In this document: piece after piece, positions 35,005 to 41,925 of the stretch | Layout: each line of letters starts with the position of its first letter | Numbering within the stretch: position 1 is the stretch's first letter | Source: Shigella phage Sf17 | Sequence record: MF327004 | Direction: 5' to 3' (one strand) | Length of the DNA: 64,000 nt | Program-made: the position numbers and the translations under genes | The notes under the pieces: model-generated | The model's input: only the letters and a program-made list of their open reading frames with translations | The model's database searches: none | Told to the model about the DNA's origin: nothing

Positions 35005-36473
35005 TGGCTGGATTAACAACTACAGGTTTACAAACAAAAAGATATCAAGAAATCTTGGATGATGTTAAAGCAAGTCTGTATAGAGATATCTCACCAAACC
35101 TTGATGTTTCTGAAGATAGCGAACTTGGGTTATTCTTAGCTTCTGTTTGCCGAGGTCTTGCAGACGTTCATGAAATCTTGTCAGAAATCTATGATGGTGG
35201 TACTATTGACAAAGCTGAAGGATTCAGTTTAGATGATGTAACAGCTTTGAATGCTGTATACAGATATGTGGCACAGGCTACAAGAGGTCAAGCTGAGTTC
35301 ACTGGTAATTCTGGTGCTCCTGTACCAGCCACTACAAGATTAAGAAGCACAGCAGGTAACATCTTTTACCCTGTGTCAACTTTCACACTGACTCCATCTT
35401 ACTGTGTAGAGGCAAACTTAGAAGTTAACTCTTTACGAACAGATGCAAACTATGTTATTATCATTGACAACATTGAGTATTCATATCAGCCGACTAGTTC
35501 TGATACCATTACAACATTGCTACAGAAACTTGCAGATGCTATTAATGGTGGTATTATTGCAAAGGCTGAAGTTACTAATGATGGTTCAGTTCTGAGAATC
35601 TATAAAGACACTGGAGATATCATTGCCAGAACTAACCCTATGGTTGTTACTGCAACGACATTCTTAACATTTACAAAGATTACTTCAATCAGTGACGTTG
35701 TAGCAGATGAAACTGGAGCTATCCAGACTCTTGCAGGAACCTTGATTGAGATTGAAACAACTGTAGATGGTCTCGATAGTGTTTTCAACAGATATGACTT
35801 GACAACAGGTCGTGATGAGGAAACTGACACAGAACTGAGACAACGTTACTTAGAATCTCTGGCTGTTACTGGTGTAGGTACTCTAGATGCTATTGTAGCT
35901 GCTGTCAAGAGAGTTCAAGGTGTGTCTGATGCTTCTGGTGTAGAAAATGATACTGAGACAACAAACTCTGATGGTCTTCCTCCGAAGTCTTTTAAGATTG
36001 TTGTAGTTGGTGGTCAGAATGATAATATTGCACAGGCAATCTGGGACACGAAACCTGCTGGTATTCGCCCATATGGTTCAATCTTTGGGACTGCATATGA
36101 CTTAGGTTCTCTCCCTCACGACGTTTACTTTAGTAGACCAATGCCTAAATACGTTTTTGTCAAGGTTACTTACTCTCTTTACGATGAAGAAACTCTTAAC
36201 ATCCCTGAGCAGGATATTCATGACAGAATTGTTCAAGGTATTAATGCCTACGGTAGAACTTTGAAAGTTGGTAACGATGTAATCCCTAACAGAATCTATG
36301 GACATATCTATGATGTGATTCAAGGTATCGAGATTAATGAGATTAAGGTTGCACTTTCAAATAACCAAGCAATTCCACCTGCTGAGGGGCAGTACACAAC
36401 CTCAAGAATCACTATTGATGGTGACCAGTACACTGTTTGGGAAAGCTCACAGTATACAATTACCAAGGAGTAA
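35004..36473 (+). CDS. putative baseplate J-like protein
   Basis: 489-aa ORF in conserved baseplate position. Confidence 0.5.
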
Positions 36474-36475
36474 CA

Positions 36476-37333
36476 ATGTTTAAAAAGATTGAAAACTTTT
36501 ATGAGAAAACATTGGACGAAAGAACTGTAACTCAATTCAAAGATAAGTTTATTTACACAAGTCTATTGAAATCTATCACAGATGAGTTACAATTATTAGA
36601 GGATATCAGTAATCAGTTATATACTGAAAGAAATATTCGTGTAGGTGTTGGCACACAACTTGATAACATCGGGGCTTTGATTAAAGTCCCTAGACCTATT
36701 GGTGCTGATGATGACACTTACAGAGCTATCCTCTACATTCAAATTTTCTTAAGACGTTCTGACACCACACCAAGCTTCTTACAAAGAGCTGTTATGACTC
36801 TTTACAACGCATCATTCAGCCAGATTTTTGAGCACATTACGCCAATGACTGGTGGAATTGTTATCCGTGTAAACACTCGTAATAACGTGTTAGATACAGC
36901 ATACACACTTTCTAAGATTGCTGCAACAACTATTGGTTCAGCAGTTATCCTTAGAGATGTTACCTTAAATGGTACTGCTTGGACTCCTGTAGAGGTTGCT
37001 GATTCATCTCTGGCAATTACTGATGAGAACAATAACTGGTTTGTAACAAACACTAACAAGGGTCTTATTACGAACAACACAGGTGGCTCTCTAGAAGCAA
37101 ATAAATTAGGTAGTTTTGCAGATGCAGGTGTAAGGGATGGTTATGTAAGAGTGGATAAAACTGGTGGAAGTACCAGTAAAGATTATTTAAAAGTCAGCAA
37201 AACAAACAATAGCAACGACTATTTCATTGCTGGTAAAGAAACAGTAGCAGGTGGTGATTATGGGATTATGGCAGAAGTCGCCCAAATCGTCAAAGGCAGA
37301 AAAGATAAATCTCAACAAGAAGGAAGTTCATAA
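36476..37333 (+). CDS. putative baseplate/tail fiber-associated protein (start trimmed from 36437)
   Basis: AAGGAG ribosome-binding site before ATG at 36476, after the upstream stop. Confidence 0.45.
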
Positions 37334-37632
37334 TGTCTCTTTCATGGTCTACAGATACAGTTGATGCTGATGGTAACCAGCTTAAAGTTTTACCACCTCC
37401 AGAAATTCAAGCCACTGGCCTATTAAGGGGTGAGCCTATGGGTCGTCAGTGGTTTAACTATATTATCAACTATTTGCTTAACAAAGTAAATGGTACGGTT
37501 GGAGAGGTTCGTTCATTTGCTACGGAGCAACCTGATTTAGTTTCCAATGGTTGGGAATTAATTGACACAGTAACAGGAACTGCACCCACTAGCACGACTA
37601 ACCTTTACACATACGAATATAAAGGGAGCTAA
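37333..37632 (+). CDS. hypothetical tail protein (99 aa)
   Basis: ORF between baseplate and tail fiber genes. Confidence 0.45.
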
Positions 37633-37634
37633 TA

Positions 37635-38810
37635 ATGCCAGTAGGTGAAATTCAAATTAGTGCATTGCCTCAAGCCTCGTTGCCTATTGATTTAAGTGAT
37701 ATCTTTCACCTTAAGCAAGGTATTGAGGATAAACGATGCACACTTGAGCAATTACTTGCTCCACACGCATCTTTAAGAAATAACCCACACGGTGTTACAA
37801 AGGTTCACGTAGAACTTGGTAATGTTGTTAACGCACTCCAATTAGTGGCTGCTAATAACTTGTCAGACGTGGTTAGTGTTGAAGAGGCTAGGCAGAACCT
37901 TAATATTCTATCAAGTGATGAAGTTAATGCTCTTATCCAGAATCACATTAATGACAAGAATAACCCTCACAACACTAACAAGATTCAAGTAGGTTTGTCT
38001 AATATTCAAAACTGGACATATTCAAACTCTTACTCTGAAGACGCTGATAAGTATGCTACTGCAAAAGCTGTGAATGCTTTATATAGAGCTATCCAGAATA
38101 GCTATCCAATCGGTACTATTCATTTGTCAGTTAACCCTGCAAACCCATCTACATATTTACTTTGTGGTGGTACTTGGGAGTTAGTTTCTAAAGGAAGGTC
38201 TCTTGTCGGTTATGACACAGATACAAGACCTGTAGAATCAGTATTTGGTTCTGCTACTGTAACACTTACACAAAATAACATTCCAAGTCACACACACTCT
38301 GTATTACTAACTGGTGGTGGACACTCCCACAATGCAACAGTAGTAATTTCTAACTTTGACTATGGGACTAAGAGCACATCAAGTTTTGATTATGGTTCTA
38401 AGGCCACAAACGACTCTGGAAGCCACGCTCATAACGTTAATGGTTCTGTAAGCAGTGCTGGTAGTCACAGCCACAGGATTCCATTGAGGGGTTCTGACAG
38501 GGGTGGTGTGAATGCTATTACGGCAACGGCTGATGCAGGTGTTGGTAATGCGTCATATACAGACTTTGATGGGGTTCACACACATACCTTCAACGTTAAT
38601 TCTTCAGTTGGTGGTAACCACTCTCACAGTGTGTATATCGGAGCACATGGACACAGTGTTGCAATTGGTTCACATGGACACTCAGGTACTGTGACAGTTC
38701 AATCTTCTGAGCACACTCACTCAGGTACAACTGGTGCATTTGGTGCTGGACAAGCATTTAATATTGAGCAACCTTCTTATGTTGTATATGTTTGGAAGAG
38801 AACTGCGTAA
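37635..38810 (+). CDS. tail fiber protein with C-terminal His-x-His repeat region
   Basis: C-terminal HTHSV, GHSHNA, SHAHNV, SHSHRI, HTHTF, NHSHSV, GAHGHSVAIGSHGHSG, EHTHSG; ends ...VWKRTA like the next gene. Confidence 0.65.
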   Translation: MPVGEIQISALPQASLPIDLSDIFHLKQGIEDKRCTLEQLLAPHASLRNNPHGVTKVHVELGNVVNALQLVAANNLSDVVSVEEARQNLNILSSDEVNALIQNHINDKNNPHNTNKIQVGLSNIQNWTYSNSYSEDADKYATAKAVNALYRAIQNSYPIGTIHLSVNPANPSTYLLCGGTWELVSKGRSLVGYDTDTRPVESVFGSATVTLTQNNIPSHTHSVLLTGGGHSHNATVVISNFDYGTKSTSSFDYGSKATNDSGSHAHNVNGSVSSAGSHSHRIPLRGSDRGGVNAITATADAGVGNASYTDFDGVHTHTFNVNSSVGGNHSHSVYIGAHGHSVAIGSHGHSGTVTVQSSEHTHSGTTGAFGAGQAFNIEQPSYVVYVWKRTA

Positions 38811-38855
38811 TTATTTTATAAGGGGCTACACAGCCCCTAGAAAGAGGATTTATAA

Positions 38856-41234
38856 ATGGCTGAATATAAGCTAAGTGAGCTAAACAGTATTGATACAGTT
38901 CGCTCAGAAGATTTACTTCACCTAAGAATTATCAAAAGGTCTGATATGCTAGGTGATGAAGACCGTAAAATGACCTATGCAAATTTCCTTGCCTCTTTCA
39001 AACTAGAAAGATTCTTACAACTAACTGGTGGGGATATGACAGGGAATCTTGGCATCGTTAAATTAAGATACGGTGGAAAAGACTTATTAGACCCAACAGG
39101 TTCTTCTGAGGTTATTCTCGGTGACACTGCCAAGACCTTTAGAATTAATGCAAGTGCTTTAAGATTAACTGTAAATGATGCCACAAGGTCTGCAACAGTT
39201 TATCACACACTTAATAAACCATCTCCTAATGAATTAGGTATGAGAACTAACACTGAAAATGATGCAAGATATGCTATGAAGGAAACTGAAAATACCTTCT
39301 TGGCAAGACAAATCATTAATATCAACGGTGTTGGTTTGACACTTAAAAGTATCTTACCAGATGGTGGAGCATATATTGAAGCAAGAGATTCAAATAATGC
39401 TTTGAGATTCACAGTTGGTAACTTGACTTCTGGTACTGATGTTACATTAGTTAACAGCAAAGGTGCTACGTTGACTCTTGGTACAAACTCTGTTAGTGTT
39501 GACAAGAACTTTGAAATCAATGGTCAGGTTCAGCCTAATAACTGGAATAACCTTGATGCAAGATTCTTTACACAGACTGCTGCTGACCAGAGATTTGCAC
39601 GACTTAATGCAAGTAATAACTTTGTTGGGGTTAACAACTTCAACGGGAAGACTTACGTTATTGCAGATAGTAATGCACTTAACTTAAGAGCGGCTACAGA
39701 GAATGCTGCATTATTTATGCGTGGTTATAACAGTGCTGGGACAGGTGCTTGGTATGTAGGTCAACCAGATGGTACGCAGTCTGAGGTTGTTTTAGCAAAC
39801 CAGATGACAAATGTTAACTTGAAAATTGCTACAGAGTTTTCATTTAACAAAGCTATCAACGTAACTGGTCAGGTAAAACCAAGTGACTTTGCAAACTTTG
39901 ATACAAGATATGTTCCAAGCTCTTTAACGAACGTTCTTGCAAGAACTAATGCTGCAAACGTTTTTACTAACCCACAAACTATTGTTACTACAGATGCGGC
40001 TTTCACATTGCAAAGTGGGACAGCTAATTCATCACTGTATATTGTTGGTGCTAATGCAGACGGCAATAGACGTTGGTATGTTGGTAACGGTGAAGGTAGC
40101 AGACCAAATTCCCTGTTCCTATACAACTATTCAAGTGGTGGTGTGCAGTTAGAAATTGCTGAGACTTTCATGTTTAATAGAAGCGTATCAGTATCTGGTC
40201 AGGTTCAGCCTACAGATTGGACAAACTTTGACTCAAGATATTACACACAATCTGCTGCAAACTCAAGATATATGTTGTCTGGTGTGTCTGGAACTGGAAC
40301 AGAAGTAGGTGATGCAACAGGTATTGCTTGGAATTCAAAAACAGGTTTGTACAGTGTTACAAATTCAACTGGTGGGTCTACTCACTTAGTTTACCAAATG
40401 CACCTTGGAGTTGGTACATCTACACCGACTGCACAGTTTAAATTTAACTACAAGAATACTGGAATCTATTATAGAACAGCAAGGGATGGATTTGGTTTTG
40501 AAGAGGTTTGGGCTAAAATCTACACAGACCAAGACAAACCTACACCCTCTGAACTTGGTGCTTACACCAAGGCTGAAGTAGACCAACGTATTGCCTCTGC
40601 GGTAACTGATTCTACAGACCTCAAGAAAGTGTATCCAGTAGGAATTGTGACGTTCTTTGCTTCTAATGTCAACCCAAATACAGCTTTCCCAGGCACTACT
40701 TGGACTTACTTGACAGAGGGTGCAAACAGAACTATTAGAATCGGTTCTGCAAATGGTTCCGATGTGAAAGGGCTTGGTGGTGCTGATACAGTTGCATTAA
40801 GTGTTGGTCATATTCCTGCACACACTCATAGCTTCTCTGGAACAACAAGTACATTTGATTATGGCACTAAGTACACAGACGCTCAAGGTGCTCACGACCA
40901 TGACAGAGGTAACATGGAAATCTCTGGTGACTTTGGTTTCTTCAGAAGTGATGCAAATAGCTTCTATACAGCAAGTGGGGCATTCGCTATCTCAGGTTCA
41001 CAAGCCTCTAGGGGTTATACTGGTTCACAATTCACTTATGGTACACCTGTCAACTTCTACGCATCAAGAACTTGGACAGGGAGAACAAGTTGGGTAGGTG
41101 CTCACGGTCACGGTGTAGGTATTGGTGCTCACAACCACACATTCAGTGGTAACACTGGTGCAACTGGTTCTGGTGCAGCATTCAGTGTTCTTAACACTTA
41201 CATTAAATTAATGGCTTGGGTAAGAACTGCATAA
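38856..41234 (+). CDS. long tail fiber protein with three internal repeats and C-terminal His-x-His region
   Basis: Three repeats GQV(Q/K)P.(D/N)(W/F).N(F/L)D.R(Y/F); C-terminal AHTHSF, GAHDHD, GAHGHGVGIGAHNHTF; ends ...MAWVRTA. Confidence 0.65.
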   Translation: MAEYKLSELNSIDTVRSEDLLHLRIIKRSDMLGDEDRKMTYANFLASFKLERFLQLTGGDMTGNLGIVKLRYGGKDLLDPTGSSEVILGDTAKTFRINASALRLTVNDATRSATVYHTLNKPSPNELGMRTNTENDARYAMKETENTFLARQIININGVGLTLKSILPDGGAYIEARDSNNALRFTVGNLTSGTDVTLVNSKGATLTLGTNSVSVDKNFEINGQVQPNNWNNLDARFFTQTAADQRFARLNASNNFVGVNNFNGKTYVIADSNALNLRAATENAALFMRGYNSAGTGAWYVGQPDGTQSEVVLANQMTNVNLKIATEFSFNKAINVTGQVKPSDFANFDTRYVPSSLTNVLARTNAANVFTNPQTIVTTDAAFTLQSGTANSSLYIVGANADGNRRWYVGNGEGSRPNSLFLYNYSSGGVQLEIAETFMFNRSVSVSGQVQPTDWTNFDSRYYTQSAANSRYMLSGVSGTGTEVGDATGIAWNSKTGLYSVTNSTGGSTHLVYQMHLGVGTSTPTAQFKFNYKNTGIYYRTARDGFGFEEVWAKIYTDQDKPTPSELGAYTKAEVDQRIASAVTDSTDLKKVYPVGIVTFFASNVNPNTAFPGTTWTYLTEGANRTIRIGSANGSDVKGLGGADTVALSVGHIPAHTHSFSGTTSTFDYGTKYTDAQGAHDHDRGNMEISGDFGFFRSDANSFYTASGAFAISGSQASRGYTGSQFTYGTPVNFYASRTWTGRTSWVGAHGHGVGIGAHNHTFSGNTGATGSGAAFSVLNTYIKLMAWVRTA

Positions 41235-41320: not shown

Positions 41321-41515
41321 ATGCCAACCATTCTAGCAATCCTCATGAAAAACCTTGGGGCATTCTTTTGGAAGCTTCTTTTTTCTCTTCTCAGTGAATA
41401 CATGATTGAAAAAGTGTTCTTTAAGCTTGCAAGATACCTTGCGAGTAAAACAGATACACCTATTGATGATGAATTTGTAGATACCTTGGAAAAGGCTTTT
41501 AAAGGTGAGAAATAA
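41321..41515 (+). CDS. small membrane protein (holin-like candidate)
   Basis: 64 aa, one predicted transmembrane helix (ILAILMKNLGAFFWKLLFSLL), charged C-terminus. Confidence 0.4.
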   Translation: MPTILAILMKNLGAFFWKLLFSLLSEYMIEKVFFKLARYLASKTDTPIDDEFVDTLEKAFKGEK

Positions 41516-41889
41516 TGAAGTGGCTTGAAGATGCTTTTAAGAATAATATTGGTGCAATCGTTGTAGGTATTTTCAGTGTAATTGGTATGTACACTACAAT
41601 GCAGGTCTCTGATGGTAAACAGGAAGTGTCTATCACAAATAAGTTACAGCAGTTGGATGGTTACTCAAAAGGTAACTATTCAGCTATTCGTGACTTACAA
41701 TCTGATATGAAGCTCCTACAATTAGGGATGGAGAACCAGAAAGTTCAGCTAGAGAATGTTAAGGGAGAAAACGCTAAGTTGACTAAGACCCTTGATAAGT
41801 TCTCTGACAGTGTTAACAACTTAGCACAATCTGTATCAGCTTTGCAAGCAATTACAGAACAAAATACCCAAAGCACTAAAAAGAAATAA
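41515..41889 (+). CDS. membrane-anchored coiled-coil protein (i-spanin-like candidate)
   Basis: N-terminal transmembrane helix (IGAIVVGIFSVIGMY) followed by ~100 aa helical/coiled-coil region. Confidence 0.4.
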   Translation: MKWLEDAFKNNIGAIVVGIFSVIGMYTTMQVSDGKQEVSITNKLQQLDGYSKGNYSAIRDLQSDMKLLQLGMENQKVQLENVKGENAKLTKTLDKFSDSVNNLAQSVSALQAITEQNTQSTKKK

Positions 41890-41894
41890 TTCTA

Positions 41895-41925
41895 AGGCTC
41901 CTTTTTACGGGAGCCTTTTTTGTTT
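41895..41925 (+). terminator. rho-independent terminator at convergence of late operon and minus-strand block
   Basis: AGGCTCC-tttttacg-GGAGCCT followed by TTTTTTG. Confidence 0.65.

Follow-up and report, generated by a model that had tools for sequence, protein, structure and literature searches.

Two tail fibre genes of Shigella phage Sf17 that probably encode T4 gp37-type tips, with HxH needles, putative receptor-binding heads and a shared C-terminal collar strand

The stretch of DNA analysed here (hereafter, the window) comprises 64,000 nucleotides (nt) of the genome of Shigella phage Sf17 (sequence record MF327004). Positions 37635-41234 of the window are occupied by exactly two adjoining open reading frames (ORFs) on the + strand, which encode the short and the long tail fibre proteins considered below. 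At the DNA level, this locus is 98.5% identical to that of Escherichia phage vB_EcoM_3HA14, 95.7% identical to that of Sf14, and 95-98% identical to the loci of Shigella phages Sf13 to Sf19; by its sequence, the phage belongs to the genus Mooglevirus of the subfamily Ounavirinae (Felix O1-like myophages). The short fibre shows 100% amino acid identity to gp52 of Sf14 over 391 amino acids (aa), and the long fibre shows 96% identity to gp53 of Sf14 over 792 aa. Both genes are located at the end of the baseplate/tail operon, in a gene order that matches those of Sf14, Moogle and Michonne: a Baseplate_J-like wedge protein, a DUF2612-like baseplate protein, a 99-aa ORF, the short fibre, the long fibre, two small ORFs and the convergent thyA/frd genes. 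Sequence and synteny together identify the pair as the orthologues of gp52 and gp53. In Sf14, these are virion proteins detected by mass spectrometry (MS), and their AlphaFold trimers have been fitted as fibres of 430 Å and 630 Å that are retracted along the sheath (PMC11821841). The assignment of two tail fibre genes to this locus in the first-pass annotation, which was made from the DNA letters and their ORFs, is thus borne out by the ORFs and by the near-identity of their products to the virion fibres of Sf14.

The C-terminal regions of both proteins contain histidine-x-histidine (HxH) motifs. The strings quoted in the first-pass annotation, ...YIGAHGHSVAIGSHGHSG... with the end ...VWKRTA and ...WVGAHGHGVGIGAHNHTF... 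with the end ...AWVRTA, are present in the short and the long ORF, respectively. The short fibre carries nine motifs (aa 219, 230, 264, 278, 315, 329, 338, 347 and 360), which contain 18 of its 25 histidines, and the long fibre carries four (aa 656, 680, 750 and 759; 8 of 13 histidines). In 200,000 shuffles of the residues, nine motifs were never reached for the short fibre, and four were reached five times for the long fibre. In each protein, the motifs form two blocks that are separated by a His-free segment, and their histidines are invariant or at least 90% conserved among the homologues: across 42 homologues of the long fibre, H656, H658, H750, H752, H759 and H761 are invariant, and H680 and H682 are at least 90% conserved. 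An origin of the arrays as a low-complexity, His-rich artefact was considered and rejected. The earlier description of dense HxH arrays at the C-termini accordingly holds with regard to the presence of nine and four motifs, although only two of the four long-fibre motifs lie near the end of the protein. The reported similarity of the terminal sequences extends much further than the common W-x-R-T-A ending: the C-terminal modules of the two fibres are homologous through the last residue (BLASTP, 29% identity over 242 aa, E=4e-17). The DNA repeats between the 3' ends of the two genes amount to 74% identity over only 42 nt, with no sign of recent gene conversion.

Both C-terminal modules are also homologous to the tip of the T4 fibre protein gp37. 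When compared with the sequence of the crystal structure of this tip (2XGF), aa 146-363 of the short fibre matched with E=9.4e-25 and aa 629-769 of the long fibre with E=3.4e-5. Both modules were aligned with residues 785-1026 of gp37 from the T4 genome record. In this alignment, all seven HxH motifs of gp37 (883, 915 and 929 in one block, 966, 980, 989 and 998 in the other) have a counterpart in the short fibre (219, 264 and 278; 315, 329, 338 and 347), in which motifs 230 and 360 are extra, and the four motifs of the long fibre sit at the collar-proximal and head-proximal ends of the two arms. The motifs of the window fibres are hence collinear with the metal-binding motifs of a solved needle. 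As summarized in the paper on phage Bas63, each HxH motif of gp37, contributed by three chains, binds one iron ion, and the T4 chain reverses its direction at the head, so that the needle becomes a beta-barrel of six strands (Bartual et al., 2010, via PMC12609058). The gp37-type module was detected by tblastn in 804 phage records, including those of T-even gp37 and of lambdoid side tail fibres.

The position of the collar defines the topology of the module. The Pfam profile PF21939 (Gp10_C) matches the short fibre with E=4.5e-17 and 63.7 bits (cutoff 27), with aa 155-390 aligned to positions 4-139 of the 139-position profile. Because the match covers the profile from beginning to end and the fibre segment contains about 100 additional residues, the needle and the head appear to be an insertion inside the collar domain, and because the match runs through the end, the shared C-terminal tail belongs to the collar. 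A collar of the gp10_C and gp37 type is thereby identified in both fibres, the long fibre being below the Pfam cutoff and linked to the short-fibre module by BLASTP. The tails themselves can be compared directly: the short fibre ends with ...QPSYVVYVWKRTA, the long fibre with ...NTYIKLMAWVRTA, T4 gp10 with ...QPYITVYRWIRIA (its last residues being ...YRWIRIA), and T4 gp37 with ...AFNYIVRLA. Neither fibre matches PF07484 (Phage_tail_collar / MdpB) at E<=0.1, and more distant homologues of the short fibre carry this domain; judging from these matches, PF07484 is a related family and not the best assignment for the fibres.

Return of the chain to the collar is indicated by indirect evidence from sequences and models. 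Each arm of the short fibre exceeds its T4 counterpart by 13 residues, the spans from the first to the last HxH motif being 59 and 45 residues compared to 46 and 32 residues, and in the homologue P0039 (Salmonella phage SPJ41, 66% identical), both head-proximal motifs have been lost together, one from each arm. The AlphaFold2 (AF2) monomer model of the short fibre is of use in the collar, in the needle strands next to it and in the C-terminal strand; it includes long strands at aa 222-242 and 346-365, which are probably the hairpin arms, and a confident terminal strand at aa 385-389. In a hairpin chain, the shared C-terminal tail closes the collar as its last strand and lies proximally in the tip module, in the part most distant from the receptor. 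The proposal of the first-pass annotation that the C-termini are receptor-binding tips is therefore supported for the modules, given their homology to 2XGF, but not for the shared tail, which is a collar strand. The receptor-binding head is probably the His-free segment between the arms, that is, aa 282-314 of the short fibre and approximately aa 683-749 of the long fibre, as judged from the alignment. A rule that places the head in the largest gap between HxH motifs was tried across the homologues and discarded; in Moogle-type alleles that have expanded FDYGxK repeats, it puts the head in the wrong place, and the arm-length correlation of -0.77 that it yields is meaningless and was not used, only unambiguous cases being kept.

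The distribution of variation is compatible with this arrangement. Comparison of the window short fibre with 57 homologues gave identities of 60-88% along most of the protein and of 12-26% at aa 286-315, in the head. In a set of 25 long fibres with identities of at least 95%, 39% of the head columns are variable, compared to a mean of 14.6% (P=1e-6), and the collar and the C-terminal strand are depleted in variation. The C-terminal tail segment, at 77-93% identity, is among the most conserved in both families. As far as alignments can tell, this pattern is consistent with a conserved scaffold that carries a specificity-determining head. The outbound needle strand contains 10-11-aa repeats of the form FDYGxK(x)TS, at positions 38355-38412 and 40854-40881, which are common to T4 gp37; the short fibres of Moogle and Michonne show a 20-aa expansion of these repeats, and from such comparisons the needle appears to change in length through repeat gain and loss.

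The long fibre includes two further parts upstream of its tip. The three repeats of about 110 aa noted in the first-pass annotation are recovered by self-comparison (aa ~143-247, 247-359 and 361-472; pairwise identity 29-39%, E=1e-13 to 5e-23), as three stretches matched by the Pfam profile PF20744 (gp37_trimer; E=1.6e-44), in keeping with a shaft of repeated units of ~95-110 aa, and as a repeat in the DNA with spacings of 345 and 330 nt. In the AF2 monomer model, each repeat has a predicted local distance difference test score (pLDDT) of 70-84, the linkers that join the repeats are short and helical or of low confidence, and Foldseek matches the model to the T4 gp34 rod (4UXG) with E=9.8e-5. 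The shaft is followed by a domain related to the tail fibre protein S of phage Mu (PDB 8JU3; E=2.6e-22 by sequence and E=7.8e-8 by Foldseek; PF12604, E=6.6e-18), which in the Citrobacter phages Moogle and Michonne is replaced by an unrelated sequence. Among 120 homologues of the long fibre, 105 have a tip with four HxH motifs, as in the window, and a 67-residue aromatic-rich head, and 13 have a tip with six motifs, a form that is also found in Moogle and Michonne. Presence or absence of the Mu-S-like domain and the two types of tip occur in all four combinations (103, 10, 1 and 3 of the 120 homologues; those named are P0148, P0150, P0233 and P0237), so that each of the two behaves as a module that can be exchanged without the other. 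The features of the locus and of its immediate surroundings are listed in Table 1.

Table 1. Predicted features of the two fibre genes and of their surroundings (positions in the window)
Feature	Position	Strand	Basis
Short tail fibre gene, 391 aa	37635..38810	+	ORF; phrog_2097 (tail fiber), E=6.6e-131; Sf14 alignment; Sf14 virion MS (PMC11821841)
Short fibre aa 1-139, putative N-terminal baseplate-attachment region and shaft	37635..38051	+	Most conserved part; 64-88% mean identity, 57 homologues
Short fibre aa 140-218, N-terminal collar portion, gp10_C fold, motif YPIGT...	38052..38288	+	PF21939; T4 gp10 matches 2FKK and 5HX2; pLDDT 75-91; Foldseek top match T4 gp10
Short fibre aa 219-281, outbound needle strand, HxH 219/230/264/278, two FDYGxK repeats	38289..38477	+	Aligns with T4 gp37 HxH 883, 915 and 929; 230 extra
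Short fibre aa 282-314, predicted head at hairpin turn, probable receptor-contact region	38478..38576	+	Aligns with T4 gp37 segment between HxH 929 and 966; least conserved
Short fibre aa 315-362, return needle strand, HxH 315/329/338/347/360	38577..38720	+	Aligns with T4 gp37 HxH 966, 980, 989 and 998; 360 extra
Short fibre aa 363-391 and stop, C-terminal segment back to collar, ...AFNIEQPSYVVYVWKRTA	38721..38810	+	End of Gp10_C profile; end like those of T4 gp10 and gp37; pLDDT 84-88
Intergenic stem-loop, AGGGGCU-ACAC-AGCCCCU	38821..38838	+	7-bp GC-rich stem, in the gap between the fibre genes
Long tail fibre gene, 792 aa	38856..41234	+	ORF; phrog_4277 over full length; alignment, orthologue of Sf14 gp53; Sf14 virion protein
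Long fibre aa 143-472, shaft of three ~110-aa repeats, each with a beta-rich domain and a short helix	39282..40271	+	PF20744; self-comparison; DNA repeat D1; AF2; Foldseek 4UXG
Long fibre aa 477-587, mid-fibre domain homologous to Mu tail fibre S (Pfam gp37_C)	40284..40616	+	8JU3; PF12604; Foldseek
Long fibre aa 588-655, N-terminal collar portion	40617..40820	+	BLASTP to short-fibre collar; PF21939, 25.6 bits; 59-81% identity in family
Long fibre aa 656-682, outbound needle strand, HxH 656/680, one FDYGTK repeat	40821..40901	+	Homology to short fibre and T4 gp37; His conservation
Long fibre aa 683-749, predicted head of 67 aa with 13 aromatic residues	40902..41102	+	Between HxH blocks; variability; composition; collar-side boundary of return arm uncertain
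Long fibre aa 750-792 and stop, return needle strand (HxH 750/759) and C-terminal collar strand, ...NTYIKLMAWVRTA	41103..41234	+	Homology; His conservation
Baseplate protein ORF, 298 aa from mechanical start TTG	36437-37333	+	Overlaps preceding gene
99-aa ORF directly 5' of the short fibre gene	37333-37632	+	phrog_4141, function unknown; no Pfam match
64-aa ORF	41321-41515	+	Only function-unassigned PHROGs (best phrog_402)
124-aa ORF	41515-41889	+	Only function-unassigned PHROGs (best phrog_4038); weak coiled-coil-type Pfam matches
Terminator-like hairpin	41894-41917	both	9-bp stem; T-run on + strand

Taken together, these observations suggest with high probability that the two genes encode both fibre types of a Mooglevirus myophage, each with a distal tip of the T4 gp37 type composed of a collar, an HxH needle and a head. 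Each fibre protein would be a homotrimer with its N-terminus fixed to the baseplate; by analogy with the short tail fibre (STF) of Bas63, the N-terminal region of the short fibre is the likely site of baseplate binding. The predicted tip would consist of a collar with the gp10_C fold, a needle to which each chain contributes one outbound and one return beta-strand (six in the trimer), and a small head at the turn. The two histidines of each motif would be located on one face of the strand, towards the threefold axis, such that in each layer the three chains jointly supply six histidines as ligands of a single metal ion; in T4 gp37, this ion is Fe(II). Counted by motifs, there would be nine such layers in the short fibre and four in the long fibre, and the column of metal ions would stiffen the trimer and set its register. 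The variable head would contact the receptor, probably lipopolysaccharide (LPS), and after the return strand, the conserved ...W-x-R-T-A segment would re-enter and close the collar. The long fibre would additionally possess the shaft of three T4-gp34-like repeats and the Mu-S-like mid-fibre domain. The trimeric state, the binding of metal, receptor contact through the head and a difference in specificity between the two fibres, the last of which the first-pass annotation had put forward as a possibility, are what we infer from these likenesses.

Several points weigh against this interpretation. Over aa 590-790 of the long fibre, the Gp10_C profile (PF21939) scores 25.6 bits, just below the curated cutoff of 27. 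In the AF2 monomer models, pLDDT is below 50 at aa 260-326 of the short fibre, which cover the distal needle and the head, and across nearly all of aa 580-792 of the long fibre (about 30-48). A Foldseek search of the PDB with the short-fibre monomer model failed to recover 2XGF and returned only weak matches, to T4 gp10 (E~0.01) and C24 (6OV6; E~0.2). The arms of the long fibre are unequal, with 24 residues between the HxH motifs of one arm and 9 between those of the other, so the boundaries of its head and needle are uncertain. The literature on the Sf14 and Bas63 fibres yielded no metal analysis of any Ounavirinae fibre. Finally, in the Sf14 paper, the AlphaFold trimer is read differently, with the gp37/C24-like part of gp52 placed centrally and not distally (PMC11821841), as opposed to the hairpin with the head between the HxH arms proposed here. 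A helix predicted by AF2 at the C-terminus of the long fibre was disregarded owing to the low pLDDT of the whole tip; in this model, only the shaft repeats and the Mu-S-like domain are informative.

Other explanations of the same data differ in the roles that they assign to the two fibres. Under a division of labour resembling that of T4, the long fibre would be the sole, reversible sensor of host range, and the short fibre, similarly to gp12, would bind the LPS core irreversibly and couple this binding to triggering of the baseplate. The Bas63 authors name the homologous proteins STF and long tail fibre (LTF) and locate the STF on a wedge protein (PMC12609058); the short-fibre collar is closest to that of T4 gp10, the baseplate protein that carries gp12; and the window phage and Sf14 have the same short fibre (100% identity) but long fibres that diverge at 4% of positions. 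We nevertheless regard such a division as possible and somewhat doubtful, given that the short fibre is 430 Å long and runs along the sheath like the long fibre, and that its head, the most variable segment of the family (12% identity), is unexpected in a binder of a conserved core. In any case, a division of this kind still assigns a receptor-binding role to the short fibre and would refine, not replace, the interpretation of both proteins as fibres with gp37-type tips. It is improbable that one of the two fibres binds no host receptor at all and is purely structural, for instance as a brace of the sheath or a sensor of fibre retraction: both proteins have a complete gp37-type tip in which the HxH motifs are conserved and the head is variable, and the clustering of substitutions in the head is hard to reconcile with contact to the highly conserved sheath, even though both fibres are folded back on the sheath and the head of the Bas63 STF lies between sheath domains (PMC12609058).

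The two remaining alternatives concern the chemistry and the polarity of the tip. The HxH arrays might be metal-free, His-rich beta-strand repeats in a needle that is held together only by packing or hydrogen bonds, and individual motifs are indeed lost in some homologues, such as P0039. This explanation is very unlikely in view of the one-to-one alignment with the iron-binding motifs of T4 gp37, the fact that the histidines are among the few invariant residues of otherwise variable strands, and the i, i+2 spacing, which turns both histidines of a motif to a single side of the strand, like those of the solved structure. As for the shared C-terminal tail, no other feature that the two proteins have in common is as conspicuous, and its position at their very ends could make it appear to be the receptor-binding end itself or an intramolecular chaperone that is cleaved off, as happens in some tailspikes and in the L-shaped fibre of T5. 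The tail, however, aligns with the final positions of the Gp10_C collar profile; similar C-termini are present in T4 gp37 and in T4 gp10, a baseplate protein that does not bind receptors; the 77-93% identity of the tail is the opposite of what is expected of a specificity determinant; and no protease or chaperone domain was found in a Pfam search of the fibres. A function of the tail as the binding end is hardly credible on these grounds, and its role as a cleaved chaperone was rejected on the collar-profile match, the conservation and the lack of a protease or chaperone domain.

According to the literature, LPS is the likely class of receptor for Ounavirinae and for Mooglevirus. In the BASEL paper, Felix O1-like phages are reported to target LPS, with Bas63 requiring an intact core, and the mechanism of recognition is called 'elusive'; a mutant resistant to the Mooglevirus Henu12, to which the phage fails to adsorb, carries an insertion in waaH. 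The Sf14 authors consider a combination of LPS and a protein receptor, and in the supplement of their paper the two fibres are proposed to bind different receptors (PMC11821841). A more speculative idea, to which we assign a low probability, is that the long fibre is bivalent, with the Mu-S-like domain (aa 477-587) and the gp37-type head being two exchangeable specificity modules that read two surface features. It is also a possibility that paired insertions and deletions, by which both arms gain or lose HxH layers, set the length of the needle and thereby how far each head reaches.

Felix O1-like phages have been used in Salmonella typing and are considered for therapy against Shigella and E. 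coli, and their host recognition is poorly defined. In the arrangement proposed here, the residues that likely determine specificity are those flanked by the HxH arms, not the C-terminal ones, which would leave ~35-70 residues to be swapped in host-range engineering, with the collar, the needle and the C-terminal strand kept intact.

The surroundings of the fibre genes show several additional features. Between the two genes, the 51-nt stretch 38808-38858 around the intergenic stem-loop has a predicted fold of -13 kcal/mol (z=-2.7); the stem-loop lacks a U-tract, is followed by a Shine-Dalgarno-like AGAGGA, and is unchanged in Sf14, Moogle and Michonne despite diverging coding flanks. A terminator is annotated at this site in the Moogle record. 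The stem-loop might set the relative expression or the mRNA stability of the two fibres. Downstream of the fibre genes, two small ORFs are followed by the terminator-like hairpin, which separates the end of the + strand structural operon from the convergent genes for thymidylate synthase and dihydrofolate reductase. In a scan of the locus for promoters and terminators, promoter-like sites were no more frequent than expected by chance, and the terminator after the operon was the sole gain. The 124-aa ORF has a hydrophobic N-terminal segment by eye, and its relatives are annotated 'putative holin'; in the Sf14 protein table, its orthologue gp55 (FDI99_gp102) is marked 'Yes' in a column shared with the structural proteins (PMC11821841), which we take to mean detection in the virion. 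The orthologue of the 99-aa ORF is listed in the same table as 'Homolog of T4 gp11?', with 'No' in the detection column (PMC11821841). The baseplate protein further upstream is annotated as 285 aa in Sf14, Moogle and Michonne, and the PHROG match from residue 14 agrees with this, such that the difference is one of start-codon ambiguity only.

The T4 gp37 tip (residues 785-1026; 2XGF; Bartual et al., 2010) is collinear with both modules and has FDYGTK repeats in common with them; the head segment of the short fibre is 33 aa long compared to 34 aa in gp37, and both proteins end with ...R-x-A. In T4, this tip is part of an assembly of gp34, gp35, gp36 and gp37, whereas here it is located on a fibre made of a single polypeptide, and the long fibre differs from gp37 in having only four HxH motifs. 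The C-terminal domain of T4 gp10 (PF21939; 2FKK) and the related collar of gp12 share the collar signature YPIGT...NP..TY...G.W and the closing strand (QPYITVYRWIRIA in gp10 and QPSYVVYVWKRTA in the short fibre); gp10 has no HxH needle, and in the window fibres the needle and the head are inserted within the domain. The T4 gp34 rod (4UXG) resembles the shaft repeats of the long fibre in fold. The Mu fibre proteins S/S' (8JU3) are homologous to the long fibre at aa 477-582, which correspond to residues 327-429 of Mu S (E=2.6e-22). The Mu fibres, however, end in a C-terminal domain that depends on a chaperone, in contrast to the internal position of the Mu-like domain in the window fibre, where it is followed by the gp37-type tip. 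A tblastn search of the window with T4 gp38 gave only chance matches (E>2; gp57A was not searched for), and no chaperone of the gp38 or Tfa type was identified next to the fibre genes, the two downstream ORFs matching only PHROGs without known function. The Sf14 genome is likewise reported to lack homologues of the Mu chaperones gp50 and gp51 (PMC11821841).

The closest comparisons are provided by Ounavirinae phages. Already in the Felix O1 genome paper of 2010, both fibre proteins were found to resemble T4 gp37 at the C-terminus (PMC3185647), and AlphaFold trimers have since been fitted into the maps of Sf14 (PMC11821841) and Bas63 (PMC12609058), the fibres of which are reported to be about 52% identical. 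Sf14 is a member of the same genus with the same gene order and the same fibre lengths of 391 and 792 aa (Subramanian et al., 2025; PMC11821841); in the main text of that paper, the terms 'HxH' and 'histidine' occur once each, in the passage on the tail needle gp47 and not on the fibres. In Bas63, from the sister genus Felixounavirus, the STF gp26 and the LTF gp27 show the same collar, six-stranded HxH needle, head and doubled-back chain, and the LTF also has T4-gp34-like repeat domains that match the shaft of the window long fibre (PMC12609058). The two phages differ in the number of motifs, seven HxH in the Bas63 STF and six HxH plus HHxH in the LTF versus nine and four in the window fibres, and in the head of the long fibre, which at 67 aa between the arms is larger in the window than in Bas63. 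The architecture of the tip had thus been published for the subfamily, and only the motif counts of nine and four and the larger long-fibre head differ here; the placement of the head between the HxH arms is a refinement of the published work and not a discovery.

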